DNA of 32,000 nt, from positions 210,001-242,000 of the forward strand of contig JAUYHT010000006.1 in the NCBI GenBank assembly GCA_030688545.1, given 5' to 3'. Below the pieces are notes generated by a model. It made no database searches, was not told where the DNA came from, and saw only the letters and a program-made list of their open reading frames with translations. Shown here piece by piece: positions 1,400 through 18,375 of the stretch. A program made the translations under genes and the position numbers. This DNA is from Candidatus Iainarchaeum sp. GTDB lineage: Archaea; Iainarchaeota; Iainarchaeia; Iainarchaeales; VGJJ01. The stretch's first letter is position 1. Each line of letters opens with the position of its first letter.

Positions 1400-1402
1400 C
1401 GT

Positions 1403-3585: not shown

Positions 3586-3774
3586 ATACCTTAATTCACT
3601 CAACCAATTGAAAAATAGATGTATTGAGATGGTATGCGATATATTAACGCGTGAATACACATATTTGGGCCTTATTTCACCATACGACCTATTTATAGGG
3701 TGGTGGTAGTTAGTTTGTACATTAGATACGCCATTTGACATGGCGTAATTAGAAAAAAAGGAGTTCAAAAACAA

Positions 3775-3894: not shown

Positions 3895-4046
3895 GCTATT
3901 TTCGAAAGAGGAAGTGGGCAACTCATTTACCTGCTACTCTAATATGACTTTCTCCCCACTCTAAAGGATGGGTATCCGACAAATAGAAAACGTCACTTGC
4001 TCGCGTGTTCGCTCGCCAAACAATGGGCGACGAATGTCGCAGGCCA

Positions 4047-4260
4047 GTTTCGGAACCTTTTTCATAAAAGGTTCATCAAAAGCATTTTGATCGAACTTTT
4101 TTCAAAAGTTCGGCTGGCCGCTGCGATTTTGATCAACCTTTTCTTAAAAGGTTGAGGGCGAGGTATCTATCTTTTTCCCCGGGCTTCATCGTAAACGGTG
4201 TTTACGATGCCCGCAAAACAGGGTTTTGCTTGGTTTTCTAAAAAGCCCGAATGATAATTG
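4047..4260. repeat. Hairpin-repeat cluster A (3 hairpin units plus conserved tail)
   Basis: Hairpins are gaacctttttcataaaaggttc (4053-4074), cgaacttttttcaaaagttcg (4092-4112) and caaccttttcttaaaaggttg (4134-4154); the last two are preceded by ttttgatc. A 9-bp perfect stem atcgtaaac/gtttacgat lies at about 4188-4208. The tail gttttctaaaaagcccgaatgataatt (4233-4259) recurs at 22559-22588. Confidence 0.8.
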
Positions 4261-4324
4261 CCTTCTCCCGTTTGACCGATCGTTTTCATTCGTTGTCTGC
4301 ATAGTCCCTAGCGACCCTCCCGTA

Positions 4325-6340
4325 TTAACTCGTGTTCACGATCAGTGTTCCGCCGGAGGTAGCAGTAGCCGGACCTACTTTAATGGCCACGCGTTGCACG
4401 TCGCTTCCCGTCATGGTAGGCCCTCCGTTAAATTGGGTGGTCCCGGGTGTGGTGTCGGTGTATGTAAGTTGAGGGGGGCCGTAGCGTTGCTGCAATACGT
4501 ATCCCAATCCCGCGCCCGAAGTTACTTGGACAAACGATTCATACAGGGAGGTGGCATCGGCCAAACTGAATACATACACTATGCTTTCGCCAGTAGTAAG
4601 ATTCCAATTATAGGTCAGTCCGGCGGAAATCGTGGTCGCTCCGCCTGAAATCATATCTAAATATGCTTGTTTTTCATGATAATTTGCGGGAGGAGTATAG
4701 GTGCAGCTCTGAGATTCGTTTTCGGTAGTGGAAGGTCTGTTCACCGTGGTTCCACAGGCATTGGCATCCGTACATGGTCTCGTTCTCATTCGGGTTTGCG
4801 TGGAATCGGGCTGGCATTCACTCCAATCGCTCCATCCCCCCCATTCGTCACAGGACCAGCTCTCGGTGCAATTGGACGGCGGGGTATACGTGCAGGATTG
4901 AGACTGTGTCTCGGTTTCGATAGGTCTCGTTGTTTCAGTCCCACAGGCATTGTCATCGGTGCAAAGCCGTTCTTGCGTGCGTGTTTGAGTGGAGGAAGAA
5001 GTGCACACGCTCCAATCGCTCCAATCCCCATACTCACCACACGACCATGATTCTTGGCAGGGGGCACAACTTTGCCTGGTCTCCGGTTTTGGACAATTCG
5101 CCGGAGTCGATTTACATAGGCGTGTCTGCAAATTGTTCGTGCATGCTCCCCATAATCCGCAATCCGGGAGGGGGCAAGCACTCTGGTTCGCTTCTGCCAC
5201 TTCTTGGTTGGATTCCGGCGGGCCGAGCAAGTTGAACGTTTTTTCAGCGGCTAGGTAGGGAAGGGCCGCGTTGGCTCCCGCGATGAGACTTGAAACAAGG
5301 TCCGATGTCGGCGTGATTCCCGTCGTCGAAGAGATGTTGACTCCGGGCGTCACCACAATGACTTGACCATTTTTGGAAGCCCCCAGCACCCCTCCTATTT
5401 TGGAGAAAGGGAGTGTTGACTTGTCCAACATGCTCTTCACGCCATCTGTGACAAATCCCACGACATGACCTCCAGTGTCTTTAATCGTGGTGAGTGCAGA
5501 TTTTACTTTGTCGAAAAATCCTTTCTCTTCCACTGTTGAACGCACGGGATCACAGGGTCCGGGGTTCTGTTGTTTCCACGTGTCCCAATTGAACGTGTCC
5601 AGATTGAAAGGTTCGCTCGTGGCAAGACTCAATTCTGCTTCCGTCAACGTGGGCGAGTCCAGCGTGTTTGAACAGGAACAGTCGCAATGAACCAGTTTTC
5701 GGTCGTAATCGTAATAGTAGCACGGTTGCTCCAATGCACACCCTGCTCCTCGCGCCGCGCATAATTCCGCGGTCTGCTTCTGGCAGCCCAGCGTCATTTT
5801 GGTAAAGGGATTCGCGGAAACATTTTCTTCAGTGGCAATGCAGGCGGAAACGCTGTACAAGTCCACATCGTCCTCGCAGTCCCAAGCCGCACAGGTAAAG
5901 GAGCAGGTGTACTGGTCGGAACCCGTTACACTCCCTTTTTCGTTTTCGGAGCACATGAAACTTAGAACGGCAGAGGAGATGTAAGTCTCATCATCCGCGT
6001 TCTCATTGTACGCACAATTATTGGTTCCTATGATGACATCCTGATTGCTGTAGCCGCTGCGTGCGGGAAGGACCTGTGTCGATCCCCTCATCCGGGAAAC
6101 AAACCAATTGTCATACCCTTTGGTTTTCGCGTCCACCGCACAACGCTTGATCACCGCGCGCATGTGTTGGTCGCACAAGTCTCGATACTCGGAGGGCCAA
6201 TCGTCATACGAATGCGTATTGTAGGAAGAATAATCCCCATAATCCCTTCCCGGTATTCCACCGAATGTATCCGCATATACGGGAATAGAAAATGCCAGTA
6301 TTCCCGCGAGAACAAATAATACAATCCATCGACTTTCCAT
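4325..6340 (-). CDS. Secreted Cys-rich protein with two thrombospondin type-1-like (WSxWS) repeats and a C-terminal beta-sandwich-like domain
   Basis: Likely start is the ATG at 6340, giving signal peptide MESRWIVLFVLAGILAFSIPVYA (the track ORF extends to 6565 with a non-signal N-terminus). There are many Cys. Two tandem 63-aa repeats carry ESWSC.E.G.WSDWS.C...STQTR...R.CTD.NACGT...SQSCTYTPP. Confidence 0.7.
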   Translation of the reverse strand: MESRWIVLFVLAGILAFSIPVYADTFGGIPGRDYGDYSSYNTHSYDDWPSEYRDLCDQHMRAVIKRCAVDAKTKGYDNWFVSRMRGSTQVLPARSGYSNQDVIIGTNNCAYNENADDETYISSAVLSFMCSENEKGSVTGSDQYTCSFTCAAWDCEDDVDLYSVSACIATEENVSANPFTKMTLGCQKQTAELCAARGAGCALEQPCYYYDYDRKLVHCDCSCSNTLDSPTLTEAELSLATSEPFNLDTFNWDTWKQQNPGPCDPVRSTVEEKGFFDKVKSALTTIKDTGGHVVGFVTDGVKSMLDKSTLPFSKIGGVLGASKNGQVIVVTPGVNISSTTGITPTSDLVSSLIAGANAALPYLAAEKTFNLLGPPESNQEVAEANQSACPLPDCGLWGACTNNLQTRLCKSTPANCPKPETRQSCAPCQESWSCGEYGDWSDWSVCTSSSTQTRTQERLCTDDNACGTETTRPIETETQSQSCTYTPPSNCTESWSCDEWGGWSDWSECQPDSTQTRMRTRPCTDANACGTTVNRPSTTENESQSCTYTPPANYHEKQAYLDMISGGATTISAGLTYNWNLTTGESIVYVFSLADATSLYESFVQVTSGAGLGYVLQQRYGPPQLTYTDTTPGTTQFNGGPTMTGSDVQRVAIKVGPATATSGGTLIVNTS
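4679..5056 (-). repeat. Tandem 189-bp coding repeat (2 units) encoding the WSxWS modules
   Basis: Unit 1 (4868-5056) is QESWSCGEYGDWSDWSVCTSSSTQTRTQERLCTDDNACGTETTRPIETETQSQSCTYTPPSNC. Unit 2 (4679-4867) is TESWSCDEWGGWSDWSECQPDSTQTRMRTRPCTDANACGTTVNRPSTTENESQSCTYTPPANY. Confidence 0.85.
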
Positions 6341-6432
6341 AGGGGAGGGGTTGTTTTCACTCAATAAAAAGTTTTGCCTTCCGCAGGGGGGAAAACCATA
6401 CCTATTTATTCTCGGGGCCATTTCCCTTCTAG

Positions 6433-6954
6433 ATGAAAACAGAGCGTCTAGGAATAATCGCAATGGGACTGCTCCTCTTTTTGGCAGGATGCACGTCTTC
6501 AAATATACAGTCTCCGACGCAGGAACAGCAAAGCAGTTTGCCAGCGGGAGATACCACGTCAACACCCCCTCCCACGACCCCGACTACGGGCCGCTCCATG
6601 GAAGAAACATCGACATTAACCACGGGCGAATTCGATGGGCTTATCCCCAACGCGGAAACCTCGCTGATTTTCCAAGCCTTGAACAACGCAGGAATAGCTG
6701 ATGCAGCCGTAGAGTATCAAACCGAAACCGTGCTCGTGGCATTCGATTTGCCTTCCAGTATGACCAATGAGGGGGCTGCTTATTTTGCATTGGGGGTTGC
6801 TTCCAAATTCGCGCAACCCACTCAAATACTCTGGGTCCAAGTATTTGAGGGAAGTACATCCAAAACGTATTTCGTGAAAGCCGACACCGTTCAGAAATAC
6901 ACCACGGGAAAGTTGAATGAAAACCAACTAAAACTTGCGGTAACCGTGCAATAA
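6433..6954 (+). CDS. Lipoprotein with Thr/Pro-rich linker (hypothetical)
   Basis: Signal peptide plus lipobox MKTERLGIIAMGLLLFLAGC, followed by the TTSTPPPTTPTTG linker. Divergent from the 4325-6340 gene. Confidence 0.65.
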   Translation: MKTERLGIIAMGLLLFLAGCTSSNIQSPTQEQQSSLPAGDTTSTPPPTTPTTGRSMEETSTLTTGEFDGLIPNAETSLIFQALNNAGIADAAVEYQTETVLVAFDLPSSMTNEGAAYFALGVASKFAQPTQILWVQVFEGSTSKTYFVKADTVQKYTTGKLNENQLKLAVTVQ

Positions 6955-6968
6955 AATCCTATCCAAAG

Positions 6969-7055
6969 AAACCGCCAAAAGTGCTTATTCTGTCCGTCCG
7001 GCGGGACGGTCTGAAGTGTGAGTGTTTGAGGTATTAGTCCCGCCTCCCCGGCTTT
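6969..7055 (-). repeat. ICR copy 1 (distal part only)
   Basis: aaaccgccaaaa...gtccggcgggac (L arm, 6996-7007)...ctgaagtgtgagtgtttgaggtatt-agtcccgcctccccggc (core, 7036-7052). It abuts the stop codon of the PemK-like gene at 7061. Confidence 0.85.
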
Positions 7056-7060
7056 CTTTA

Positions 7061-7423
7061 TCAGGAAAGTTCATACAGTTCCTTTATTTTGGATTTAACT
7101 TCGTCCAACTTGGCTGTATGAACTTCATCGACCTGGCGCAGAATCTTGTCCTTGACCAGTACTACCGGAAAATCCGCTCGAATAAAACTCTCTTTAGCCA
7201 GCATTTTTTTCTCCGTGCTTGCATTGGTCAGAATGCAATCAAAATCATTTTTCCGAGGCTTAGAAGTTATTTTCAGCATCACGATATCAGGAGACTTAGA
7301 ATTATATTTTGCAGAGCTAACCACCAACCCTAATCGACGCTTGCTACCTTCTTGGTCCGAGTAGCGAACATCCGCCACAATGATTTGGCCCGGTTTAATG
7401 TTTGAGGAGTTCATCGGCGTCAT
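7061..7423 (-). CDS. Type II toxin, PemK/MazF-like endoribonuclease
   Basis: IKPGQIIVADVRYSDQEGSKRRLGLVVS...DIVMLKITSK matches the PemK/MazF SH3-like barrel pattern. It overlaps the upstream small antitoxin ORF. Confidence 0.65.
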   Translation of the reverse strand: MTPMNSSNIKPGQIIVADVRYSDQEGSKRRLGLVVSSAKYNSKSPDIVMLKITSKPRKNDFDCILTNASTEKKMLAKESFIRADFPVVLVKDKILRQVDEVHTAKLDEVKSKIKELYELS

Positions 7424-7613
7424 CCCAGTCTTCTAACGCATGCTTTAGTGCATATGAACGAACGGCATCACTCGAATTCTTTTCACTTTTTTCCAGCTTC
7501 TCAAGCTTGCTTTCAAAGGCTCTTCGCGCGACTTCCGTCCACTTTACATCCGAGTGCTGACGCATCTTTTCATGCATCTCATCCGGCACATTCATCGTCA
7601 TATTCGGCATCAA
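7395..7613 (-). CDS. Putative antitoxin partner of the PemK/MazF-like toxin
   Basis: 72-aa acidic protein overlapping the toxin start by 29 nt. The MNVPDEMHEKMRQHSDVKWTEVARRAFESKL pattern is RHH/antitoxin-like. Confidence 0.5.
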   Translation of the reverse strand: MMPNMTMNVPDEMHEKMRQHSDVKWTEVARRAFESKLEKLEKSEKNSSDAVRSYALKHALEDWDDADELLKH

Positions 7614-7679
7614 ATCACCTTATATAAGTAAAATAAGTAAAGGAATATTTAAGCCTATCGGGGGCAAAGCGCCAAAGCC

Positions 7680-7850
7680 GCACTGAAAAGTTAACACCAT
7701 AAAATGCGATTTTTGCCTTTTTGGTAAAATTTGGTGTTAACCGCCTCAAATATTCTGTTCCGGGAATCTTCCTGCTTTATTCACCCCCTCGCTTCTTAGC
7801 TCGGTGCAGTTAGTGAACTTAGTGTAATTGCTAACCATAGCTTACCTCCT
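7680..7850 (-). repeat. ICR copy A (diverged; carries 30-aa micro-ORF 7746-7838)
   Basis: Minus strand reads AGGAGGTAAGCT-ATG, then MVSNYTKFTNCTELRSEGVNKAGRFPEQNI*. It has the conserved CACTAACTGCACC block, and the R arm has decayed to tttgaggcggttaacacc. An extra 10-bp inverted repeat gttaacacca/tggtgttaac lies at about 7690-7745. Confidence 0.6.
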
Positions 7851-7853
7851 AAA

Positions 7854-8744
7854 CTACTTGTAACTGAGAAGCTTTTGGTGAGTATCCAGTATGTGATTCA
7901 CGGAATGTTGAAGTTCCTTTGCTGATGCTACAAATCGTTTCTGCTCAATAGTATTAGGCGAAAAATGTGCAATTCTAAGCAATTTTCCTTTTTTTGCGAT
8001 GAATGGAAGGGAAATAGTGAGGTCTTTGACACCTAAGAATGGTTTGTACAGATGGCCTGAGACTTGCACAGTCTGTTCCTTTGCATTTGTCAATCGTTCA
8101 AAAAAATCTCGAAAGGCTAAACCAGCGGCTTTGTGAGGAATTCCATGCGCACGGATAAAAGCCAACAATTCGAAATCCGTTTTGTGCGCTAATTCATCAT
8201 ATTTCTTTTCATTCGTTGAGTTGATGATTGGAATCGCCTTTCCATGAGTTCCAATACAGAAAACTTTTTTTCCAAGCACCTTTTCGTATCTCTTGGCATC
8301 CAATTCCATTCCAAAACCGAGAATATCATTACGGTTTAGTTTCAAACGCAAATAATTGGTAATTTCATCTACGGGATTGGTGACAACAATAATGCGGGTC
8401 TTTGAAGAAATCTTCTTGAGATAACGAAGAAGGTCGGCCACTGCTCCAAGATTAAATTTCAATTCATCCTGCCGAACTTCATACGTCGAACTCCTACTTA
8501 TCATACTTTCAGTACGTGCACTATCGCTAATCCCAGAAAGTGAAAGGATAATGTAATCAACTTTTTGGAGAGCTGAAAGATTCTCTAAAACGCGCACCTT
8601 CGCGCTATCCAAATCAGCTGCTAATCCTTTTGCACTTTTGGATGTACGACTGTAGAACAAAAGCTCCTTCGTCTCTTTGAGCTCAACTAAATTTTCAGCA
8701 ATAGCTCGGCCTGTTCGTCCACAGCCGATTAGTAGGATATGCAT
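7854..8744 (-). CDS. L-lactate/malate dehydrogenase family 2-hydroxyacid dehydrogenase (divergent)
   Basis: Rossmann motif MHILLIGCGRTGRAIA, then IIVVTNPVDEITN, GFGMELDAKR and the catalytic-His context IGTHGKAIP (GEHG equivalent). Confidence 0.65.
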   Translation of the reverse strand: MHILLIGCGRTGRAIAENLVELKETKELLFYSRTSKSAKGLAADLDSAKVRVLENLSALQKVDYIILSLSGISDSARTESMISRSSTYEVRQDELKFNLGAVADLLRYLKKISSKTRIIVVTNPVDEITNYLRLKLNRNDILGFGMELDAKRYEKVLGKKVFCIGTHGKAIPIINSTNEKKYDELAHKTDFELLAFIRAHGIPHKAAGLAFRDFFERLTNAKEQTVQVSGHLYKPFLGVKDLTISLPFIAKKGKLLRIAHFSPNTIEQKRFVASAKELQHSVNHILDTHQKLLSYK

Positions 8745-8785
8745 ATCAGAAAGATTCCAATTCGACCCGACTTATAAGCAATAGT

Positions 8786-8870
8786 GTCCGGTCGTCGGGA
8801 CAAGCCTGAAGCGTCAGAGAAGAAAGTATAGTCCCGCCTCCCGGACTCGCAATCGGATCTTCGGTTTTCA
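8786..8870 (-). repeat. ICR copy B (distal part)
   Basis: L arm gtccggtcgtcgggac (8786-8801), spacer, core agtcccgcctcccggact (8830-8847), then cgcaatcggatcttcgg. It starts within about 10 nt of the ATPase stop at 8881. Confidence 0.85.
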
Positions 8871-8880
8871 TTCATTTATA

Positions 8881-10158
8881 TTATTCTTCTAACAGCCATT
8901 TCCACACAGGCTTAACGTTTATTCTTTTACCGTCTTTCTGAATATTTTCTTCCTGATCAAACGTAAGGATGAGGCCTTTGCTTGCTTTTATTTCGCCCAT
9001 TGCCTCCAAAAGACCATTAATTTCCCGATCTTTAGTCGTTGGGGTAAGAGCATAGGTTACTTGTACTGCTTCCAATTCGTTTGACCGCTTGAGAATGAAA
9101 TCACATTCCTTCTTTCCCTTAAAATAAAATGTCTCCATATCTCGTCGCTTCAATTCCTGCATAACAATGGCTTCGAGTCGTTTTCCATTATCTGGATTGA
9201 ATGCAGGCGAGAGAAACGTTTGAAAAGAGTTATCCGATAAGTAAACCTTTTTGGGATTAAGCGAACGCACTTTAGCAGAATATGAGAATTTGGATGAAGA
9301 GAAGATAAAAAAGGCGTCTTCTAGGTGATTTAGATAAAGGGAAATTGTTTTTTTGCTAACTTCCGTTCCTCTCCCCTTAAGCATTTTTTCGAAAGAGGTT
9401 ATGGAAAAAAGAGACGAATTATTGTCAAGTATGTGATTCATAAGCACCTGCATAATATCTACACTCTTGACATTGTAACGTTCAACAATGTCCTTGTAAA
9501 AAGTGGTTTCATAATAGGTTTTTACCAGATCTTTTTTTTCATTCAATTCTTTTTGGGCCAAAAGAGGAAAACCGCCATAAGACATATATTCGTCAAACAA
9601 TCTAAGGAGTAATCCTTTTTTTTCGCTAAATGGAATTGTTTTATCATAGCTAAATCCTTTTAACTGTAAAAATTCTTTGAACGAAAAAGGAAGCAGGAGA
9701 ACACTCGTATATCGACCACGAAGTTCGGTAGCCACTTCCTTACTGAGAAGCTTAGAGGATGATCCGCTTAGTATAATGAAATATTTACCTGTATTATGAA
9801 GCCTTCGAATAAATTTGCTCCAAATAGGCGCTTCCTGAATCTCATCAAAAAAGAGATAATGTGGTTCCACCCCAGTCACCTCTCGGTGAGCCACAAATAA
9901 TTCATCGAGGTGGCTGGAAGAAATTCCAGCCAAACGATTATCTTCAAAATCCAAGAAGAGAATCTCATTTCGATTAACTTTTTCGAGCAATTGCTTAATC
10001 GTCAAAAACATGATGGACGTTTTACCCACCCTCCGCGGACCGATAACTGCCTGGATGCTTTCCTTACTTGGTTTTAGATGTACACTTCTCTGGATCAATT
10101 CGGGCAAGGGTTTTTCCAGCCATTCCACGATCATTCGTTTGAAAATATCCCGATACAT
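8881..10158 (-). CDS. AAA+ ATPase, DUF4143-containing (COG1373-type)
   Basis: Walker A GPRRVGKTS, Walker B-like LLFLDFEDN / YLFFDEIQ, and the C-terminal restriction-endonuclease-like region typical of this family. Confidence 0.7.
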   Translation of the reverse strand: MYRDIFKRMIVEWLEKPLPELIQRSVHLKPSKESIQAVIGPRRVGKTSIMFLTIKQLLEKVNRNEILFLDFEDNRLAGISSSHLDELFVAHREVTGVEPHYLFFDEIQEAPIWSKFIRRLHNTGKYFIILSGSSSKLLSKEVATELRGRYTSVLLLPFSFKEFLQLKGFSYDKTIPFSEKKGLLLRLFDEYMSYGGFPLLAQKELNEKKDLVKTYYETTFYKDIVERYNVKSVDIMQVLMNHILDNNSSLFSITSFEKMLKGRGTEVSKKTISLYLNHLEDAFFIFSSSKFSYSAKVRSLNPKKVYLSDNSFQTFLSPAFNPDNGKRLEAIVMQELKRRDMETFYFKGKKECDFILKRSNELEAVQVTYALTPTTKDREINGLLEAMGEIKASKGLILTFDQEENIQKDGKRINVKPVWKWLLEE

Positions 10159-10189
10159 GCTAAATTATACCCAAGATCACCTTATATAT

Positions 10190-10243
10190 GTTTCTTCATA
10201 GAAACAGTTTGACGGTTAATTGTTTCTTATAAGAAACAATTAA
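10190..10243. promoter_or_regulatory. Two adjacent palindromic operator-like sites sharing GTTTCTT/AAGAAAC half-sites
   Basis: Perfect 28-bp palindrome ttaattgtttcttataagaaacaattaa (10216-10243), plus gtttcttcatagaaac (10190-10205). They lie 32-60 nt upstream of the ATPase start at 10158 and downstream of the 88-aa gene. Confidence 0.5.
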
Positions 10244-10286
10244 ATATCACCCCCACCCCCCCAGCCAATCAAGGAGATGCATTCTT

Positions 10287-10553
10287 TCATACTTCCACGC
10301 TTTCTTGAATCAGCTTTTTCATCCTATCTTTAGGAGTATAAACCCAGATAATGCCTTTAGGAGTGTCTAAAACCATAAAGCGTTTCTCAAAATACTCAAT
10401 AATCACGTCCAAGGTTGGGCGCATTATTTTGTTACCGGCTCGTTTCAATAGCTCATAGCGAGAAAGAGGCTCTTTGGCTTCTTTGAGTATTTCTTCGACT
10501 AAAAGAACGGTTTTGAGGGTGGGGTAGTGTAGGACCTGCATAAACGTCACCAA
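10287..10553 (-). CDS. Small hypothetical protein, possibly winged-helix DNA-binding
   Basis: 88-aa ORF. The helix-rich N-terminus and beta-hairpin C-terminus (GIIWVYTP) suggest wHTH. No firm motif. Confidence 0.4.
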   Translation of the reverse strand: MVTFMQVLHYPTLKTVLLVEEILKEAKEPLSRYELLKRAGNKIMRPTLDVIIEYFEKRFMVLDTPKGIIWVYTPKDRMKKLIQESVEV

Positions 10554-10593
10554 CTACATTAATATAGACATATAACGCATATAAAGATATATT

Positions 10594-10896
10594 CTATTTG
10601 GCGTTCTTTCCGCTTGCTTTAGATAATCCCCAATACTTTATTTGACCAATGAAAAAACTGATGGTAAAAAGCACGTAAATGATAACAAAACTAAATTCAG
10701 TGAAAAAGAACCCAATATCAGCTAAATCACCGGTTGTAGATACTCTGAGTAAAAATCCTAACGAAAATAGAACCATCGGGAAAACAAAAATAGAAAGGAA
10801 ATGAAGACCCGTCTTAAAACGAGAAAGAATAGAGTAAACAAAACCAATACTCAAAAGAAGCACAAACGGAATAAAAAAAATATAAATATTGGACAT
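10594..10896 (-). CDS. Small membrane protein (3 TM), hypothetical
   Basis: 100 aa with three hydrophobic helices (IYIFFIPFVLLLSIGFVYSIL, FLSIFVFPMVLFSLGFLL, FFFTEFSFVIIYVLFTISFFIG). Confidence 0.5.
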   Translation of the reverse strand: MSNIYIFFIPFVLLLSIGFVYSILSRFKTGLHFLSIFVFPMVLFSLGFLLRVSTTGDLADIGFFFTEFSFVIIYVLFTISFFIGQIKYWGLSKASGKNAK

Positions 10897-10938
10897 ACGA
10901 TACGTTGTTGCAATACCTATTTAATGGTTACACAATCT

Positions 10939-11040
10939 ACCCGGGGGAAGACCAAAGGTTGAGTAAGTGATGGATTAGTCCCGGCTTCCCGGATTTACTT
11001 CTAAGAAACTTCCGACTTTTACCCGAGGTCTCGCTTAAAA
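10939..11040 (-). repeat. ICR copy B' (diverged, 1-nt insertion in core)
   Basis: accaaaggttgagtaagtgatggatt-agtcccggcttcccggat (core, 10977-10994), then ...cgaggtctcgcttaaaag. Confidence 0.7.
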
Positions 11041-11120
11041 GATCACACACCATAGCAAAACACCCTCCTGCGATAGTTAGTGAAGATTATCAATATAAGG
11101 AAGCAGATTGTCGGAGATAT

Positions 11121-11960
11121 ATGAAACAGATATTGCTAACAAATGACGACGGTTATCAGTCCGTTGGTTTCTACCCCTTGTTAAAGGAATTAGAAAAGAG
11201 TTTTTCTGTTACTTCGGTTGCACCGGAAAGCGAAAGGAGTTGGATAGGAAAATCGATTACAGCCAAAAAAGAATTAAAGGTCAAAAAAATAAACCTGAAT
11301 GGAATCCCAATTTATGTTTGTAGTGGAACTCCTGCCGATTGCTCTCAATTGGGCATATATGAGTTTTCAAAAAAGCGACCGGATTTAGTGGTGTCCGGCA
11401 TCAATATCGGTGCAAATGTTGGACATGGTAGAATACTGAGTTCGGGCACAATTGGTGCAGCAATGGAAGCGGCTATTGATGAAGTAAAGGCACTCGCCTC
11501 CTCACTTCAACTTCCCGATGATATACGCAAGTCAGCGGATTTCTTTCACCCCAAAAATTATTCCATGTTTGAGAATGCAGCAAAAATAACAGCTAAAATT
11601 GCAAAAATTGTGGTTCAATACCCATTTGAGAAAGGTGTGGACATTCTTTCTATCAACATACCATTTGAGGCCACCGTTGAGAATAAAATCCAGATTACGA
11701 GGCCACATCGAGAACCCTATCACCGACTTTTTGCGAAAAAAAACGAAGGATATAGTAAGAAATCAATCGGTGATTCGTCTGCTCGCGGCAAAATAGATTT
11801 CACATACAAAATCGGCACAGACAGTTATGCACTTTCTAAGAATAAAATTTCAATCACCCCTATTAGCTTGAACCTTTCACGCGAAGAATCGTTCAAAAAA
11901 CTAAATCAGCTTCTCAAGAAGAACTGGTCGTCGGGACAAGAGCAGAGCTTGAGTAGGTGA
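11121..11960 (+). CDS. surE: 5'/3'-nucleotidase SurE
   Basis: N-terminal hallmark MKQILLTNDDGYQSVG, plus SGINIGAN and SGTIGAAMEA motifs. The last 12 or so codons (NWSSGQEQSLSR*) are read through the antisense of ICR copy C. Confidence 0.8.
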   Translation: MKQILLTNDDGYQSVGFYPLLKELEKSFSVTSVAPESERSWIGKSITAKKELKVKKINLNGIPIYVCSGTPADCSQLGIYEFSKKRPDLVVSGINIGANVGHGRILSSGTIGAAMEAAIDEVKALASSLQLPDDIRKSADFFHPKNYSMFENAAKITAKIAKIVVQYPFEKGVDILSINIPFEATVENKIQITRPHREPYHRLFAKKNEGYSKKSIGDSSARGKIDFTYKIGTDSYALSKNKISITPISLNLSREESFKKLNQLLKKNWSSGQEQSLSR

Positions 11961-12092
11961 ATGGATTAGTCCCGCCTCCCGGACTCGAAATCGGGAAATC
12001 TCTGGTCTTTTGGAAGATAGGCTCGGCTGAAGCCTCGCGAAGAGTGTAGTTGGTGTACTTTGGGATGTTCTCTGAACTCATCTCAGCCTCCC
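11914..12092 (-). repeat. ICR copy C (near full length; carries 55-aa micro-ORF 11914-12081)
   Basis: Minus strand reads GGGAGGCTGAG-ATG, then MSSENIPKYTNYTLREASAEPIFQKTRDFPISSPGGGTNPFTYSSSALVPTTSSS*. Core is at 11968-11985. Confidence 0.85.
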
Positions 12093-12093
12093 T

Positions 12094-12369
12094 TCAATAA
12101 ATGTTGTCGTGATGATCATAGTCCGCAAAAAGAACAAACTTTTTCGCTTTGTCATATTGAAAAGTTAAAACAAAGTGTTTGTCGATATGAACACGTTTGA
12201 AATCTTTCATCGTGTGGCGCAGGTTCTTGTAGTGTTCAATGGTATATTCATCCGAGTTCACAATTTGTTTAATTTTCTTGTTAATGATTAAAACTTTCTT
12301 GGGATCTCGCTTGGCTAAATTCCGTAGAATATCCTTCAGTTTGTCAGATAGGTCGTATTCCAGTGGCAT
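12094..12369 (-). CDS. Type II toxin, RelE/ParE superfamily (YafQ/RelE-like mRNA interferase)
   Basis: 91 aa. The pattern ...KKIKQIVNSDEYTIEHYKNLRHTMKDFKRVHIDKHFVLTFQYDKAKKFVLFADYDHHDNIY is the typical RelE-fold C-terminus. It sits 6 nt downstream of a small antitoxin-like ORF. Confidence 0.65.
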   Translation of the reverse strand: MPLEYDLSDKLKDILRNLAKRDPKKVLIINKKIKQIVNSDEYTIEHYKNLRHTMKDFKRVHIDKHFVLTFQYDKAKKFVLFADYDHHDNIY

Positions 12370-12375
12370 AAGAAA

Positions 12376-12636
12376 TCACAAGCCGCAGAGTTCATCTAGC
12401 TCTTTATCCGACATTCTGCGATTGGGGTGCTTACGATAATGCTCCTCCGTAATCTTCAAAATTTTTTTAGCATAGGCTTCGCTGGCTTCTTGTTCTACAA
12501 ACTCATCTCCAAACATCTCGGCAAACTTATCCAAAGCCTCGCCTTTATCGCGCAAACCATACTTTTCCTTAACTACCCCCAAGACTCGGGAAGTATAGCC
12601 CTTCACTTTCGTATTAATGGCAACCGAATCACCCAT
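12376..12636 (-). CDS. Putative antitoxin (DUF2683-like)
   Basis: 86 aa. VAINTKVKGYTSRVLGVVKEKYGLRDKGEALDKFAEMF resembles the archaeal DUF2683/RHH-type small proteins. Position is immediately upstream of the RelE-like toxin. Confidence 0.5.
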   Translation of the reverse strand: MGDSVAINTKVKGYTSRVLGVVKEKYGLRDKGEALDKFAEMFGDEFVEQEASEAYAKKILKITEEHYRKHPNRRMSDKELDELCGL

Positions 12637-12687
12637 TTAATATCACCTAATATAGAATTAGTTGAACTAATTAATAAGGCTTTGGAC

Positions 12688-12800
12688 GCGAACCGCCAAA
12701 AAGAGCTCTATTCCGAAAATCTTCCGTTTCTATCCGAAACCTCAATTACGGGTTCGGTGTGGTTAGTGCACTTAGTGATATTCAATTGATTCATCTTTCC
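12688..12800 (-). repeat. ICR copy D (internally deleted; 28-aa micro-ORF 12708-12794)
   Basis: GGAAAG-ATG, then MNQLNITKCTNHTEPVIEVSDRNGRFSE*. This is joined directly to the distal TTTTTGGCGGTT motif (plus strand aaccgccaaaaa, 12691-12702). The arm/spacer segment is missing. Confidence 0.65.
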
Positions 12801-12848
12801 AATGTAGGAAATCCATACTTTTAATAATACTCCAAGGGATATAGGACT

Positions 12849-13382
12849 ATGAATAGCGGTAGAAAACGTCCAGGACCAAGGAGCAATGGCAGAAGGGGAT
12901 TGTTCCCAAAACCATTATCTTATTACCTCGGGAAGAAAAGAGGCAAGCAAGCTCGTAACCCAGCGGAAGACTTCATCGCTGGAAGATCCTCTCATCTAAT
13001 TGCTCAGGATTTCGAAATGGCCCTTCTTAATAGACAAATTAATAGGCTAAATGCTAAACGTCGAGCCAAAATAATAACCCCTAAAGAAAGGGAAACTCTT
13101 TCATTTGCGCTTATTGAAAGAGCTACTCTCCAACTTCCAATCAGCAATTTACGGTGGGCTTTAGAAACAGCATTGGCATTCCATTCAGCAATTTGGAACC
13201 ACCAAAATAATACACCTATTGGACAATACACTCCTTTATCATATAGCAAAGAGCATTGGACTGAACAATTAAATTTAATGATTCAATATTACCCACACTT
13301 CCGAAAATATGGTATAGGAAAAAAATATTTTGATTCATTCGTAAGACTGACACGCCAATTAATTGACACGCCAATTGATTGA
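12849..13382 (+). CDS. Hypothetical protein with highly basic N-terminus
   Basis: 177-aa ORF opposite in strand to most of the array. No recognisable motif. Confidence 0.4.
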   Translation: MNSGRKRPGPRSNGRRGLFPKPLSYYLGKKRGKQARNPAEDFIAGRSSHLIAQDFEMALLNRQINRLNAKRRAKIITPKERETLSFALIERATLQLPISNLRWALETALAFHSAIWNHQNNTPIGQYTPLSYSKEHWTEQLNLMIQYYPHFRKYGIGKKYFDSFVRLTRQLIDTPID

Positions 13383-13427
13383 ATGAAAGCATTGAAGTAA
13401 TTTTTTATTCCACCATAAGCATATCTG

Positions 13428-13544
13428 TCTTCGGGGCGATACCGAAGGTTGAGTATGTGAAATAGGATTAGTCCCGCATCCAGGATTCTATTCCGGGAAT
13501 CTCTCGTTTTTTCTTGATTGCTCGCTTCTAAGCTCGCCAACCAT
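13428..13544 (-). repeat. ICR copy E
   Basis: ccgaaggttgagtatgtgaaataggatt-agtcccgcatccaggatt (core, 13470-13487), then ...gggaatctctcg...ctcgcttctaagctcgcc. The ATG at 13544-13542 directly follows the Nudix TAA. The micro-ORF is truncated (MVGELRSEQSRKNERFPE*). Confidence 0.8.
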
Positions 13545-14096
13545 TTATTTCATCCACTTGTAAATTTTTTTGCGCTCCCGATAGAGCTTGAGAATGCCTG
13601 TTGCAATAAAGTCGTTTTTTATTTTTCCAGATAGAACCATACGATAGGCTGTTAATAATGACTTTGGATGGACTGAAATGTCCTCATCTTCATCCTTCTC
13701 AAGGGGGTCGTATTCCAAATCGGTCGCCAGAAAGGCCGCCAGTTTCCATTCTAAAATTCCTAATCTGTCTTTTTCAATAAAAAGTTTCATTTTCTTTGCA
13801 CGATAACCCGTTTCTTCGCGCAGTTCACGCTGAGCTGCTATATGAATATTTCTTTCCTTATCCACCCGTCCGCCCGGGACTCGCCAATCGTACTCGCTTG
13901 TTTTTTGGCGATACTCACGGGTAATCAAAACACGCTTTTGCTTATCGAAAGCAAAAACCACTACACTAGGGGGACGAACAGCGCGTTCAAAAATTGTTTT
14001 TTTACCACTTGGAAAAACCGCAGAAGCCTGTTCCACCCGGAAAAACTTGCCTTTGAATACGGACTTGTATTTTCCAACTTTTACTCGACCAACCAT
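13545..14096 (-). CDS. Nudix hydrolase (ADP-ribose pyrophosphatase-like)
   Basis: Nudix box GGRVDKERNIHIAAQRELREETGY (GX5EX7REUXEEXGU). The N-terminal beta region is typical of the ADPR pyrophosphatase subfamily. Confidence 0.8.
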   Translation of the reverse strand: MVGRVKVGKYKSVFKGKFFRVEQASAVFPSGKKTIFERAVRPPSVVVFAFDKQKRVLITREYRQKTSEYDWRVPGGRVDKERNIHIAAQRELREETGYRAKKMKLFIEKDRLGILEWKLAAFLATDLEYDPLEKDEDEDISVHPKSLLTAYRMVLSGKIKNDFIATGILKLYRERKKIYKWMK

Positions 14097-14128
14097 ACCA
14101 CTAACTCCTTCAAAATCTGGTTAATAAA

Positions 14129-14280
14129 TCCGGTCGTCGGGACGAGTCGTAAGTGTCACAGAAGTAGAAATTAGTCCAGCCTCCCGGTAATGCACCAGGG
14201 GATCTTTCTTTGAATACAGGCTCGGTTGCTGCCTCGCTGACGTTGGTGCAGTAGTGATGATCGACCAACGTATCTCATCC
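14129..14280 (-). repeat. ICR copy F (near full length)
   Basis: L arm tccggtcgtcgggac (14129-14143), core agtccagcctcccggtaa (14173-14190), then gaatacaggctcggttgctgcctcgc and ggtgcagtagtgatg. The conserved frame has only a TTG start and reads ...VDHHYCTNVSEAATEPVFKERSPGALPGGWTN... Confidence 0.85.
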
Positions 14281-14293
14281 AATCCAATATTTA

Positions 14294-14764
14294 CTATTGG
14301 AAACGATAAATTATTCCTCTATTGCCAAGTTGAGCCTTCTGGAAATTAGGGTCCTCGCACACAACAAAATCGGTCTTTTTGTCTGCAAAATTCGTCTTTC
14401 GATAAAGCTCTGCTGGAACTAATCGATTAATATCCCAAACGAGTATTACTCTATCAGCTTTACCCTTGTAACGTTGACCCCTACCCAATGAAAGGATTTT
14501 ATTAAATCCATTTTTCGGCAGCGGAACTCGTGAGAAAAATCGTTCTCTTTTCCAACCACTTACACTGCTGACCCCACTCTTTGTCAACCTATTTTTGTTC
14601 TGTCCAAGTGCACGCCGAAGTTTAGCCAGACGACCTTCAGCAGCGGATTTTTGTCCCGCTGTCATTTTAGCACTAGGACGACTCATTCGCAATTGAAAGA
14701 CTCTCAAATCGTTTTGACGTCTCCTTATATTACGCGAAGCTGATGATATTCTCGACGTAGGCAT
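14294..14764 (-). CDS. Hypothetical protein, Arg/Lys-rich N-terminal half
   Basis: 156-aa ORF filling one inter-repeat unit. No recognisable motif. Confidence 0.45.
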   Translation of the reverse strand: MPTSRISSASRNIRRRQNDLRVFQLRMSRPSAKMTAGQKSAAEGRLAKLRRALGQNKNRLTKSGVSSVSGWKRERFFSRVPLPKNGFNKILSLGRGQRYKGKADRVILVWDINRLVPAELYRKTNFADKKTDFVVCEDPNFQKAQLGNRGIIYRFQ

Positions 14765-14822
14765 GCAAGTAAAGAAAATTTAGTAGTTTAAAAAGATTTC
14801 CTGAATTCTAACGAAAAATGTA

Positions 14823-14926
14823 GTCCACCAGGCGGTCCGGCCTGAAGTGTGAGTGTTTGAGATATTAGTCCCGCCTCCCGGACTTGCAATCGGAGAATCT
14901 CTGATTTTCTGGAATAAAGGTTCGAT
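14823..14926 (-). repeat. ICR copy G (5' part replaced by HicA gene end)
   Basis: L-arm variant gtccaccaggcggtcc, spacer cctgaagtgtgagtgtttgagatatt, core agtcccgcctcccggact (14867-14884), then tgcaatcggagaatctctgattttctggaataaaggttcg. Confidence 0.85.
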
Positions 14927-14934
14927 AGGAAGAC

Positions 14935-15141
14935 CTATTTGAAATCCTCTTCCGTCAACCCAGTTGCCTCAATAATCGATTTCAACGTCTTCGGGACAAT
15001 GACTTTATGATTTGGTACCGTAACGGGCGGTCGCTCTGGGTGCTGAAGATGAATATGGCTGCCTTTTTGGTTTTTGATAGAGTAGCCTTTCTTCAAGAGA
15101 ATACGCAAAACTTCTTTGCCAGAAACAACAGGAAGTTTCAT
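14935..15141 (-). CDS. hicA: HicA family toxin (YcfA-like mRNA interferase)
   Basis: 68 aa with GKEVLRILLKKGYSIKNQKGSHIHLQHP...VTVPNH. The KGSH motif and overall HicA pattern are present. It overlaps the upstream HicB by 4 nt. Confidence 0.8.
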   Translation of the reverse strand: MKLPVVSGKEVLRILLKKGYSIKNQKGSHIHLQHPERPPVTVPNHKVIVPKTLKSIIEATGLTEEDFK

Positions 15142-15353
15142 ACGGTAACAGAAACTTTCGTGACTTCCTTGTCACTATGGAGAGGGACACCCGATTCCGC
15201 CAATGACTCCAAATGCAACGCTATGGCCTCTTTGATATTTTCCAGCGCTCCCTCACGAGTTTCTCCTTGACTAATACATCCGGGCAACGCTGGAACGGTC
15301 ACGGTATACCAGCCCGATTCACTGTCTTTTTCCAAATAAACTTTCCAATCCAT
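15138..15353 (-). CDS. hicB: HicB/UPF0150 family antitoxin
   Basis: 71 aa. YTVTVPALPGCISQGETREGALENIKEAIALHLESL is the classic UPF0150/HicB N-terminal domain. Confidence 0.8.
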   Translation of the reverse strand: MDWKVYLEKDSESGWYTVTVPALPGCISQGETREGALENIKEAIALHLESLAESGVPLHSDKEVTKVSVTV

Positions 15354-15395
15354 ATCAATACCCCCCTATTAGTCAATAAAAATCAATGCCTAACA

Positions 15396-15485
15396 AACCG
15401 CCAAATACGCCTTTATGCGTCCGGAGGGATGATGGCGAAGGTTGAGTCTATGAACAATGAAAGTCCCGCCTCTCTCGATGCCACA
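15396..15485 (-). repeat. ICR copy H (distal part, decayed core)
   Basis: aaaccgccaaat...gtccggagggat...gcgaaggttgagtctatgaacaatga-agtcccgcctctctcgat (core, 15462-15479). It begins 7 nt from the NMNAT stop. Confidence 0.75.
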
Positions 15486-15491
15486 GGCAGG

Positions 15492-16001
15492 TTATCCCCT
15501 AATTCCATATGCTTCTTTGATCCGTTTTATTCCATTAAATTTTTTGATTAGTCTTGCAACCGATTTTCCAGTAAATTGCTCCCAGGATTGGTTAAAAGCG
15601 ATGGCGTCCCTAATCTTAGTGGAGGAAATGGTCCCCGCCCGTTTTATTCGTTTAATTCTTACCTTTTTTCGAATGAGTTTGATAACCGTTTCTTTATCAG
15701 TATACAATACATCAAATTGGCCGCAGCACTCAAATAGATTTTGAATACCCACAGAATATGATTTTCCATCCATAACTACGACAACTTTCACTTTATTTGA
15801 ATCGATTCCCTCTTCTTTCAAATAGGCTTGCATCATTTTTCTTTTTTCAGTTCCATCAAATGGGTTCCTTTTTGTATTTCTAAATTCAGCACTACCAACT
15901 ACTACAAATAATTTATCTACTTCTTTCAAAATTCCCTTTATGACACGCAAATGCCCTTTATGCGGAGGATTAAATCGACCCCAATAAACCCCAATCATCA
16001 C
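15492..16001 (-). CDS. Nicotinamide-nucleotide adenylyltransferase (archaeal-type NMNAT)
   Basis: GVYWGRFNPPHKGHL (the (H/T)xGH nucleotidyltransferase motif in archaeal NMNAT context) and the C-terminal ISSTKIRD (ISSTxxR) motif. 169 aa. Confidence 0.8.
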   Translation of the reverse strand: MMIGVYWGRFNPPHKGHLRVIKGILKEVDKLFVVVGSAEFRNTKRNPFDGTEKRKMMQAYLKEEGIDSNKVKVVVVMDGKSYSVGIQNLFECCGQFDVLYTDKETVIKLIRKKVRIKRIKRAGTISSTKIRDAIAFNQSWEQFTGKSVARLIKKFNGIKRIKEAYGIRG

Positions 16002-16060
16002 TCAATCATTTATCCGAAATTAATAAACGATGCTGAAAAGTATCTGCAAATTCGAACACT

Positions 16061-16200
16061 CTAATAAATTATAGTCCCGCCTCCCGGACTTGCGACCTGG
16101 GAATTTCCGGTCTTTTGGAATACAGGTTCGGCTTCTGCCTCACTATGAGTGTATTTAGTGCAGTTTATGCTATTCGACTGACTCATCTTATCTTTCCCAA
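16061..16200 (-). repeat. ICR copy I (proximal part; 41-aa micro-ORF 16061-16186)
   Basis: GGGAAAGATAAG-ATG, then MSQSNSINCTKYTHSEAEAEPVFQKTGNSQVASPGGGTIIY*. Core agtcccgcctcccggact is at 16073-16090. The distal spacer and L arm are absent. Confidence 0.85.
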
Positions 16201-16217
16201 GCTTCCGGCAGTTTCTA

Positions 16218-16403
16218 TTATGTTAATAGTTTTTCAATTGCATAGCCGCCCACATAGTCTTCTTTTGTCAGAGGATTAGGTATCCCCCTTCGCTTGAGCT
16301 CATCCATCATTTCCCAAATACTTATCCCAGCCATCTCCGCGGCCCTTCCTATGCTCACTTTGCTTTCGGAGTATTGCTTGACCGCTTTTTCTAGATTATT
16401 CAT
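16218..16403 (-). CDS. UPF0175 family antitoxin-like protein
   Basis: 61 aa. KVSIGRAAEMAGISIWEMMDELKRRGIP is the UPF0175 HTH signature. It overlaps the HicA stop by 4 nt. Confidence 0.7.
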   Translation of the reverse strand: MNNLEKAVKQYSESKVSIGRAAEMAGISIWEMMDELKRRGIPNPLTKEDYVGGYAIEKLLT

Positions 16404-16630
16404 AGTTTCTCAACTAACTTATAGAATTCTTCTTTTTCCATTTTCAATCCTTTTTTGATAATCTTATCTCGAATTCCCGTTCCAACGGGTTCGTTTCCAT
16501 GAATGGGGATGGTCAGCACCCTTCCATCCGCATGTTCAAACTGATGATGACTTCCTTTAACTCTTTTTTCAGTAAACCCAAGCTTGATGACAATCTTGGC
16601 TAACTCTTTGCCGGAAAAGACTTTGGACAA
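16400..16630 (-). CDS. hicA: HicA family toxin
   Basis: 76 aa with GKELAKIVIKLGFTEKRVKGSHHQFEHADGRVLTIPIHGNEPV. Confidence 0.8.
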   Translation of the reverse strand: MSKVFSGKELAKIVIKLGFTEKRVKGSHHQFEHADGRVLTIPIHGNEPVGTGIRDKIIKKGLKMEKEEFYKLVEKL

Positions 16631-16635
16631 AGTCG

Positions 16636-16866
16636 TTACACCTCAACGACTTGCAATCCTACAAACCGAGAGGATGAAACTTCATGCTCATTATTACGTT
16701 CCAGACAAAGTTCAATTACTTCCTTAATCCGCTTCAATAATTCATCCATTGTTTTGGCCTGGGTGTAGCACCCTTCCAACTCAGGAACTTCCCCCACAAG
16801 CCAACCCTCGTCGTCTTTTTCAATAACCATCGTAAAGGTCCGTTTAGCCATTTTTTCGTTTGTCAT
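16636..16866 (-). CDS. hicB: HicB/UPF0150 family antitoxin
   Basis: 76 aa with FTMVIEKDDEGWLVGEVPELEGCYTQAKTMDELLKRIKEVIELCLE. Confidence 0.8.
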   Translation of the reverse strand: MTNEKMAKRTFTMVIEKDDEGWLVGEVPELEGCYTQAKTMDELLKRIKEVIELCLERNNEHEVSSSRFVGLQVVEV

Positions 16867-16906
16867 AGTATGACTCTCCAGTTACAGAATAAAACCTTTT
16901 CTTATG

Positions 16907-17085
16907 AAAACCGCCAAAAAACGTTTATTTGTCCGGCGGGACGAAACCGAAGGTTGAGTCTGTGAATAGAATTAGTCCCGCCTCCCGGACTTGCACCGGG
17001 GATCTTTCTTTGAATACAGGCTCGGCTGCTGCATCGCTTATCTTTGCTAAACTCTAACACACCTTTTGGTGCAGATAGTGAATTA
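16907..17085 (-). repeat. ICR copy J (best-preserved full-length copy)
   Basis: aaaaccgccaaaaaacg, L arm gtccggcgggac (16931-16942), spacer gaaaccgaaggttgagtctgtgaatagaatt, core agtcccgcctcccggact (16974-16991), then tgcaccggggatctttctttgaatacaggctcggctgctgcatcgc and ggtgcagatagtg. Confidence 0.9.
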
Positions 17086-17111
17086 TAAAGAAATATAGCG
17101 TTCGTTATGCA

Positions 17112-17963
17112 ATGAAAAGCACATACAAAAGAATTGGCGCTAGCATTCATACACGGTGGAGAACTTGGAGAAAAGCGCAGAGGCGGAAAGAAGCGATACA
17201 AGTTGGTTCAAAAATTGGGGAAGGAGCACAAGGAGTTATTCGTAGGGGACAATTTTTTCGGAATGAACGTTCACGTCCGATGATAGTAAAAAGATTCAAG
17301 GGAACACCAAGAACGGCAAATCATGAAGCCGTTTCCTCCTACTATCACCTGAAATTATTACATCAACTAGGATTTCCAACTACCCCCTTTTTTCATCTTT
17401 TTCGCGATCCTAGCAATAAAGCCTTTTCGTTAATGTTGAGTGATTTAACACGAAGACGAAACGGTGAAGAATACAATATTGTCCACGATTTACAAGAAAT
17501 ACAAGACGAGAACTATCGCAATTTAACCACCAAAGGGATGCATCCTAAAGACCTCACTGAAAGAACTATGCACTATTTTGTTAAGGGAAAGGACAGAATG
17601 ATTAGTAATCCAGATGAGATTGATAAGCAAATACAAGAACTTAATAGTAAAGCCAGTAAGATTGGTATTACGCTTGGTAGAGAAGCATTTGTGGTTGTTG
17701 TGAATAACAAAACAAGACATGGACATGTTGTTATAAATGATGTAGCTGAAACAAATATTCCACAAAAATTATTCCCGGAAAACTTTATTCGAAAAGAGCA
17801 CAGAAAAGATTTTTTTAATTTGAGAACAAATTGGAATTCAGCTTTTGAAAATGCTGTTATTATCGCTCTTAGTTTTCCAATAAGCGTACCTTTCCTAATT
17901 TATGAAAAAATTAATGAACAAATAATCGAGTACCGCTATAGACGGGAAAAAAAAGGAAAATAG
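17112..17963 (+). CDS. Hypothetical protein, possibly a divergent protein-kinase-like fold
   Basis: 283 aa. It has a glycine-loop-like IGEGAQGVI followed by PMIVKRFKG (VAIK-like Lys), and later RHGHVVINDVAE (a possible catalytic-loop analogue). Weak motif-level evidence only. Confidence 0.4.
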   Translation: MKSTYKRIGASIHTRWRTWRKAQRRKEAIQVGSKIGEGAQGVIRRGQFFRNERSRPMIVKRFKGTPRTANHEAVSSYYHLKLLHQLGFPTTPFFHLFRDPSNKAFSLMLSDLTRRRNGEEYNIVHDLQEIQDENYRNLTTKGMHPKDLTERTMHYFVKGKDRMISNPDEIDKQIQELNSKASKIGITLGREAFVVVVNNKTRHGHVVINDVAETNIPQKLFPENFIRKEHRKDFFNLRTNWNSAFENAVIIALSFPISVPFLIYEKINEQIIEYRYRREKKGK

Positions 17964-18009
17964 TGAAGATGACACAAGAAAGCGGGAACGATTGATGAAA
18001 GACCAAAAG

Positions 18010-18130
18010 TGTCCGCCGTAAAAAAAGTTAACATTCATTGTCCGACGAGACAGCCCGATGTGTGAGAGTTTGAGGTATAGTCCCGCCTCCCGGACTTGCA
18101 CCGGGGATCTTCCGGTCTACAGCCGGACGC
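18010..18130 (-). repeat. ICR copy K (terminal copy at the GC-rich boundary)
   Basis: gtccgccgtaaaaaaag, L arm gtccgacgagac (18040-18051), spacer, core agtcccgcctcccggact (18079-18096), then tgcaccggggatcttccggtc. Confidence 0.85.
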
Positions 18131-18133
18131 ATT

Positions 18134-18375
18134 AGCTACTATGCTAAGGCGGGAACTCTTCCCATCTCAGTTATCGCGAGCCTTTTCCAAAAAGGCTCAG
18201 CTACTCTACCAAGGCGGGAACCCTTTCCGCACTCACTTTTTTGATCACCTTTTTTTCTAAAAAGGTCACCTTTTTGATCAACCTTTTTTTCTAAAAGGTC
18301 ACCTTTTTGATCAACCTTTTTTCTAAAAAGGTTGAGCTACTTTGGTAAGGCGGAAATCTTAATTAACTCCATACA
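18134..18375. repeat. Hairpin-repeat cluster B (3 'agctact...aaggcggga' units, 1 isolated hairpin, 3 tandem 33-bp hairpin units)
   Basis: Units are at 18134-18169, 18199-18235 and 18335-18375. Hairpin gagccttttccaaaaaggctc is at 18178-18198. Tandem units tttttgatca(c/a)cttttttt-ctaaaa(a)ggt.. are at 18237-18270, 18271-18303 and 18304-18336. Confidence 0.85.

Follow-up and report, generated by a model that had tools for sequence, protein, structure and literature searches.

We analysed a stretch of 32,000 nucleotides (nt) from the genome of Candidatus Iainarchaeum sp. (assembly GCA_030688545.1, contig JAUYHT010000006.1, positions 210,001 to 242,000; hereafter the window), in which repeated blocks carry short open reading frames (ORFs) of 18 to 55 amino acids (aa). 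These micro-ORFs had been noticed from the sequence alone in an original prediction, which leaned towards a nucleic-acid-level element with some copies still translated and kept a diverging small-protein family as a second option. Our results lead to the conclusion that the micro-ORFs are most likely orphan gene starts carried on tRNA-Tyr-derived attachment (att) sites rather than a small-protein family. Each is probably the 5' portion of an integrase gene (ribosome binding site, start codon and the initial 25-35 codons) that becomes detached when the mobile element carrying the gene inserts into tRNA-Tyr. Three lines of evidence bear on this reading: the origin of the repeats, the conservation of an open frame into their tRNA-derived core, and the identity of that frame with the frame of a tyrosine integrase in related genomes.

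Attachment sites derived from tRNA-Tyr

Every repeat in the window holds a partial copy of tRNA-Tyr that begins with the 3' strand of the anticodon stem (about position 41) and extends to the acceptor end, a relationship that the original prediction had missed. The gene from which the repeats derive lies in the window:

18080-18153, minus strand: tRNA-Tyr(GTA) gene, the attachment target (Rfam, 63 bits; ARAGORN; alignment with the repeat copies)

In the copy nearest to this gene, at 16975, about 33 nt are identical to the tRNA gene. When a 19-nt core was searched for with up to three mismatches, nine matches were found in the 1.13-Mb genome, all of them on one strand and within positions 473-18096 of the window. 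The island has a GC content of 37-43%, compared with about 50% for the genome, and the native flank, as known from relatives whose site is empty, sets in again just before the window begins. Thus both hallmarks of a tRNA-att island are present, namely co-oriented matches to the tRNA 3' part that are confined to the region behind the tRNA, and relatives in which the site is empty. Furthermore, 16 genomes of the genus were searched, and in most of them the same repeats (one to nine matches) lie behind tRNA-Tyr; some of the sites in these genomes are empty.

Between repeat copies lie cassettes of one to three genes. Pfam matches among the scanned cassette genes were to NUDIX, SurE, a cytidylyltransferase-like enzyme, an AAA_14/DUF4143 ATPase and an Ldh-like protein, and several small cassette ORF pairs resemble toxin-antitoxin modules when judged by eye only.

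The att copies are more than tRNA fragments. Their upstream arm, which bears CACTAANTNCAC, carries tandem 9-bp iterons, and a Shine-Dalgarno (SD) sequence and an ATG in this arm start a reading frame that continues through the core. On the other side, 20-60 nt past most cores, the downstream arm holds a palindrome of the GTCC-N4-GGAC type (for example at 6990-7010, 8787-8805, 14129-14147 and 16931-16942). The acceptor part of the core is complementary to this palindrome, behind which come an oligo-T tract and a GGCGGTTT end; the downstream arms form two families, both common to congeners. Where a cassette gene of the opposite strand lies beside an arm, the iterons border directly on a conserved TATA-like box that reads AATATAAGG on the other strand; the ATG of that gene follows about 25 nt later. 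Such sites are found at 17080-17112 and 11085-11121 of the window, at about 9500 of locus L018, and at about 225 and 8790 of locus L019, and the arrangement looks like a divergent promoter inside the arm.

Several features of the tRNA-Tyr gene itself were also observed. Its T-loop reads TGCAAGT, which places a G at position 55 in place of the near-universal U, and the same is seen in other Iainarchaeia (loci L066-L068 and L071). Just upstream of the real gene, at about 18190-18225 on the minus strand, lies a partial second tRNA-Tyr 5' end with an acceptor strand and a D-arm-like part. In other genera the tRNA-Tyr gene is interrupted behind the anticodon by an intron of about 36-130 nt; these intron-bearing genes are missed by ARAGORN, and gene callers translate through them into the integrase.

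Peptide motifs and the open frame

The conserved sequence block on which the micro-ORFs had been aligned proved to be a genuine motif. With at most one mismatch, CACTAANTNCAC occurs seven times against 1.1 expected, always on the minus strand (7/7) and always within repeats (7/7), and twice as a pair of units at 9-nt spacing. The distance from the ATG to this block had been described as constant; we find it to be variable (14, 17, 17 and 26 nt), although the differences are multiples of three, and the copy starting at 13544 is without the block. ORFs of at least 18 aa that start with ATG are themselves in excess, with nine observed in the 11 repeat regions against 2.9 +/- 1.6 in shuffled sequence (P ~0.002).

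The encoded peptides share three motifs, and we asked where in the att site each is encoded. SPGGGT is the T-arm and acceptor strand of the tRNA read in one frame, and the true tRNA gene yields the same tail. EPVFQK overlies a diverged remnant of the anticodon-loop region. The N-x-T triplets correspond to two or three of the tandem 9-bp units, and in a codon alignment Thr is nearly always encoded by ACT, whereas second-base changes give the middle codon the forms TGC, TAC and TTC. The nearly constant Thr codon and the variable middle codon indicate that N-x-T is a DNA motif and not a selected amino acid pattern. In addition, the iteron pair recurs in inverted orientation about 100-150 nt past the core, within the 5' part of integrase genes (G002, a congener, and locus L074). 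This is the layout expected of arm-type binding sites, and the 9-bp iterons are likely to be such sites. Since SPGGGT is tRNA sequence and N-x-T is an iteron, the conserved residues are, on the evidence of the DNA alignments, by-products of DNA function.

A comparison of codon positions, proposed with the original prediction as a test of coding, gave pairwise differences of 0.41, 0.40 and 0.47 at positions 1, 2 and 3 across 12 copies, with a ratio of nonsynonymous to synonymous differences (pN/pS) of ~0.7. Substitutions are thus about equally frequent at the three positions, which argues that there is no peptide-level selection on the micro-ORFs and speaks against their coding as peptides.

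These data also bear on an independent small-protein family, whether of leader, type-I-toxin-like or glycosylated peptides. Such a family would account for the recurrence of ORFs with an SD and an ATG and for the common motifs N-x-T, EPVFQK and SPGGGT. However, every common motif maps to a DNA element, the codon positions show no bias, and neither the C-termini nor the stop positions are conserved. The peptides contain no hydrophobic stretch and have no Pfam match, and no copy lies outside the tRNA-Tyr island. Among 1.84 billion proteins, a profile search returned just four comparable small ORFs, three of which match ORFs at the att copies of congeneric genomes exactly. We give this explanation almost no credence.

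The frame, as distinct from the peptide, is under selection as far as the core. We measured the spacer between iterons and core, independently of ORF calling, in ten copies from seven species that keep both elements and have an ATG upstream of the iterons. The spacers are 40, 52, 55, 55, 58, 61, 61, 64, 67 and 67 nt, all of which equal 1 modulo 3, and the probability that seven distinct lengths differ by multiples of three by chance is ~(1/3)^6. Over 308 codons, stops in frames 1, 2 and 3 number 0, 16 and 31. The ATG in the arm is conserved in the seven species and in four further Iainarchaeum-like genomes reached via integrase loci, and an SD-like sequence precedes most of these ATGs. Past the core, the frame and the stop position vary between copies.

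A purely DNA-level att site, in which arm and core are kept as recombinase binding and crossover sites and the ORFs are incidental and untranslated, would be in keeping with the even distribution of substitutions (and the pN/pS value) and with iterons that behave as a DNA motif. It could also draw on the GC-rich core, which is open in all three frames and gives an ORF even in the real tRNA gene, and on the roughly half of arm-bearing copies that are broken or truncated. Such a site gives no reason for indels in multiples of three, for a used frame that is free of stops while the other two are not, for a start codon conserved across species, most often behind an SD-like sequence, or for the agreement with the integrase frame in 6/6 genomes described below. 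We regard this alternative as improbable. Thus the nucleic-acid-level reading of the original prediction holds in that the repeats are att sites derived from tRNA-Tyr and their shared peptide motifs are translated DNA motifs. The ORFs are not incidental, however, since SD, ATG and frame are conserved across species.

Probable Int(N) stubs of a split integrase

In two congeners, G016 and G002, a tyrosine integrase gene lies directly behind tRNA-Tyr, and its 351-codon open frame extends through the tRNA core in the frame that reads SPGGGT. The continuation of the micro-ORF frame into an integrase gene in relatives was the second feature that the original prediction had missed. An integrase in frame with the tRNA-derived core is also found in G155, G153 and G154, and in G157 this holds for the N-terminal motif. 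The integrase belongs to PF00589 (67 bits) and has a weak, below-cut-off match to a SAM-like N-terminal domain; a Pfam search of the relatives' integrase gave no match to PF16795 (Phage_integr_3). In G016, the codons ATG, GTG and TTG are all absent from the stretch that leads from the core to the D and Y residues, which do not vary among 20 homologues. In G002 a TTG is present after the core, with a poorly spaced SD.

An ATG for this frame lies at the other end of the island. In both G016 and G002 an intact stub in the integrase frame stands before the terminal core, the one beside the native flank, and the same arrangement is seen in G155 (a seven-copy array), G153, G154 and G157, which were reached through integrase loci and have an intron-containing tRNA-Tyr. 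When attR and attL were recombined in silico, an ORF of 362-374 aa starting from the stub ATG was obtained in 10 of 13 pairs (six genomes), a count of pairs that are not independent given that the genomes compared are related. Most of the rebuilt ORFs have a recognisable SD. In G157 the stub and the integrase N-terminal motif are both in an alternative frame, and a frameshift follows later in the integrase. Together, the stub frame equals the integrase frame in 6/6 genomes. One Candidatus Iainarchaeum metagenome-assembled genome also illustrates the layout of such loci: in L162 (G155:C74:8500-27500) a 7.8-kb integrase-bearing element is followed by five cassettes of 0.9-2.5 kb, and the element and the cassettes are all bounded by copies of the tRNA-Tyr 3' exon.

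We propose that the attachment site lies inside the reading frame of the integrase itself. In a free circular element, the stub and the catalytic piece would form one gene. Integration at tRNA-Tyr would then split this gene, leaving the catalytic part beside the tRNA and the stub at the far end, next to the duplicated core. With strand exchange inside the core, stubs would be swapped between integrase-bearing elements and small integrase-less cassettes, and such swapping would maintain the open frame and still let the peptide sequence drift.

Besides the relatedness of the genomes, several observations weigh against this proposal. In most close homologues a possible start codon (ATG or GTG) lies within the gene itself, immediately ahead of a conserved D-I-Y motif, so that the integrated gene may still express a shorter form and the split is perhaps not 'suicidal'. 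No unsplit, contiguous gene was found in the arrays, among longer word-sharing proteins or in the profile search of 1.84 billion proteins, nor in viral contigs searched with an integrase profile or in viral and metagenome contigs searched with a DNA pattern. These searches likewise gave no free or circular element with an intact full-length gene, which is weak evidence of absence. In the window, the cores are followed by the hairpin arm and not by an integrase, and no integrase remnant was detected in the window cassettes by tblastn at E values up to 5. Finally, the proposal has to explain why cassettes without an integrase would retain a stub at all. Four proteins considered as candidates for the unsplit gene (P0007, P0009, P0015 and P0025) were rejected, as comparison with the DNA of relatives identified their N-terminal extensions as read-through of an intron-containing tRNA-Tyr.

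Within the window, the five minus-strand ATG starts and the peptides of the original prediction were reproduced letter for letter, as were the frameshifts and stops that it listed in other copies. A purine-rich SD, claimed for these starts, is clear at 7838 and 12081 (3-9 nt 5' of the ATG) and weaker at 16186 and 12794. The copies are as follows:

16061-16186, minus strand: 41-aa micro-ORF from the ATG at 16186; intact stub of Int(N) type with SD, ATG, iterons and a 67-nt spacer, in frame 1 through the core at 16072-16090
11914-12081, minus strand: 55-aa micro-ORF from the ATG at 12081; intact stub of Int(N) type that reads the core at 11967-11985 and the downstream arm
16972-17034, minus strand: short stub of 20 aa; the core at 16973-16991 is read in the other frame
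12708-12794, minus strand: 28-aa micro-ORF from the ATG at 12794; truncated stub with ATG and iterons (12757-12777) retained, core and hairpin arm deleted, and an early end
7746-7838, minus strand: 30-aa micro-ORF from the ATG at 7838; truncated stub with strong SD, ATG and iterons (7804-7824) retained and the core deleted
13488-13544, minus strand: 18-aa micro-ORF from the ATG at 13544, immediately 3' of the Nudix stop codon; decayed stub with its ATG after the iteron position and an in-frame TAG right before a diverged core at 13469-13487
14121-14290, minus strand: decayed copy with iteron-core spacing in frame (55 nt) and a core at 14172-14190
10925-11090, minus strand: decayed copy with an extra base within the core at 10975-10993 that causes a frameshift
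14866-14884, minus strand: att core copy with no ORF start upstream
8829-8847, 7035-7053, about 15463 (degenerate) and 475-493: further att core copies without a start

Only two copies in the window, those starting at 16186 and 12081, are intact through the core; the remaining copies are frameshifted, stopped, truncated or read the core in another frame. In the copy at 14121-14290, a 1-nt deletion within an iteron throws the upstream ATG out of frame. The short stub at 16972-17034, whose iterons (17069-17080) sit upstream of its ATG, fits a second integrase lineage of the genus (L074) that reads the core in this frame. No partner integrase for the window stubs was found in this genome, in which the four PF00589 genes lie outside the array. 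The window stubs are orphans.

The position of the micro-ORFs within the cassettes bears on a third alternative, a regulatory upstream ORF whose translation across the tRNA-like core would itself matter with no integrase joined to it, either by sustaining downstream expression or by melting the hairpin of core and arm. Each micro-ORF is the last ORF of its cassette and starts 0-31 nt past the stop of the upstream gene, as at 12081, where the stub begins 12 nt past the stop of a small ORF (12094-12369). This arrangement would suit such a role, as would an ORF that stays open while its sequence drifts and that is retained in cassettes without an integrase. However, the ends of the window ORFs are not coupled to a downstream start, since one extends into the 3' end of a SurE gene that converges on it and another stops 60 nt short of the next gene, and an oligo-T tract follows the hairpin arm. 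Regulatory translation also leaves unexplained why the frame is that of the integrase, including the switch in G157. We consider this explanation very improbable.

Under the split-integrase reading, the cassette stubs might be selectively kept as donors of a start codon, and perhaps of a promoter, so that any integrase-bearing element landing behind such a stub would be reactivated and neighbouring cassettes mobilised. We think this extension rather unlikely. If it were true, the tRNA-Tyr island would serve DPANN archaea as a platform for capturing genes, similar to an integron but based on a self-splitting, otherwise ordinary tyrosine integrase.

Other integrases and neighbouring features of this genome were also recorded. 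Three tyrosine integrases of 431-459 aa with a C-terminal extension (C4:412069-413646, C6:103185-104701 and C3:438645-440020) lie directly behind tRNA-Cys, tRNA-Arg(TCG) and a 3' fragment of tRNA-Gly(CCC). An overlap of these genes with their tRNAs was ruled out, as each has its own ATG and they start 65-230 nt downstream. A divergent 404-aa gene beside the array was considered as an analogue of IntI and rejected, having no family or structure match and being absent from the loci of relatives; its predicted N-terminus suggests a secreted or membrane protein. Tandem units of 33-34 nt (TTTTGATC, a stem, a T/A-rich loop and a stem) occur at 18233-18338, 22462-22563 and about 4050-4150. These clusters (families D3/D4), one of which lies directly upstream of tRNA-Tyr, are unrelated to the att repeats. 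At 4325-6565 on the minus strand, a 746-aa ORF with about 50% GC stands in the otherwise low-GC island; it has internal 189-nt repeats (D10) and no Pfam or NCBIfam match.

Comparison with known systems

That an integrase gene can be split by the att site it contains is well established (PMC8371274, PMC7253208). In a review from 2021, self-splitting is described only for a single and probably monophyletic family, PF16795 in superfamily 25_02, of hyperthermophilic archaea (PMC8371274). As in the SSV-type elements (SSV1, pTN3, pT26-2), the 3' part of a tRNA serves here as the att site inside the integrase frame, the catalytic part would be left by the tRNA with a short, start-bearing N-terminal stub at the other end, and the int(N) and int(C) pieces could be paired again by recombination (PMC8371274, PMC7253208).

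Several differences from the SSV type were found. The integrase here belongs to PF00589 and not to PF16795, and the hosts are groundwater Iainarchaeia (DPANN) rather than hyperthermophiles. The stub amounts to just 15-32 codons besides the core, and the peptide it encodes is not conserved. Additionally, many relatives have an internal start codon, so that the integrated gene may not be dead, and most stubs reside on integrase-less cassettes of 0.7-3 kb. The difference in integrase family and in host lineage sets the present case apart from the self-splitting systems described. A self-splitting design with an ordinary PF00589 integrase in Iainarchaeia suggests either a convergent origin or a much wider spread of the mechanism.

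The proposed mechanism would also explain recurrent 'hidden' small ORFs, which are missed by gene callers or called hypothetical, as half-genes completed by site-specific recombination. For the annotation of DPANN islands it suggests two rules: an SD-ATG frame that runs into a tRNA fragment would mark the distal end of an integration, and the frame of the stub would predict the frame of the partner integrase.

The island also resembles Islander-type islands and the tycheposons of Prochlorococcus, in which elements are stacked at one tRNA hotspot with partial tRNA copies and the content differs between close relatives (bioRxiv 10.1101/2020.12.28.424599). In contrast to these islands, the units described here, with one to three genes each, are very small, and most are without an integrase. 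Their sites keep two arms beside the tRNA part, a conserved upstream arm that contains a translatable gene start and a hairpin arm downstream.

Similarly, small cassettes separated by structured recombination sites with a small ORF are reminiscent of integron arrays. Short ORFs at integron attI sites aid the translation of cassettes, and the stubs may resemble them. Unlike integrons, however, the array has no IntI-type integrase beside it, and its sites are derived from a tRNA and not from attC.

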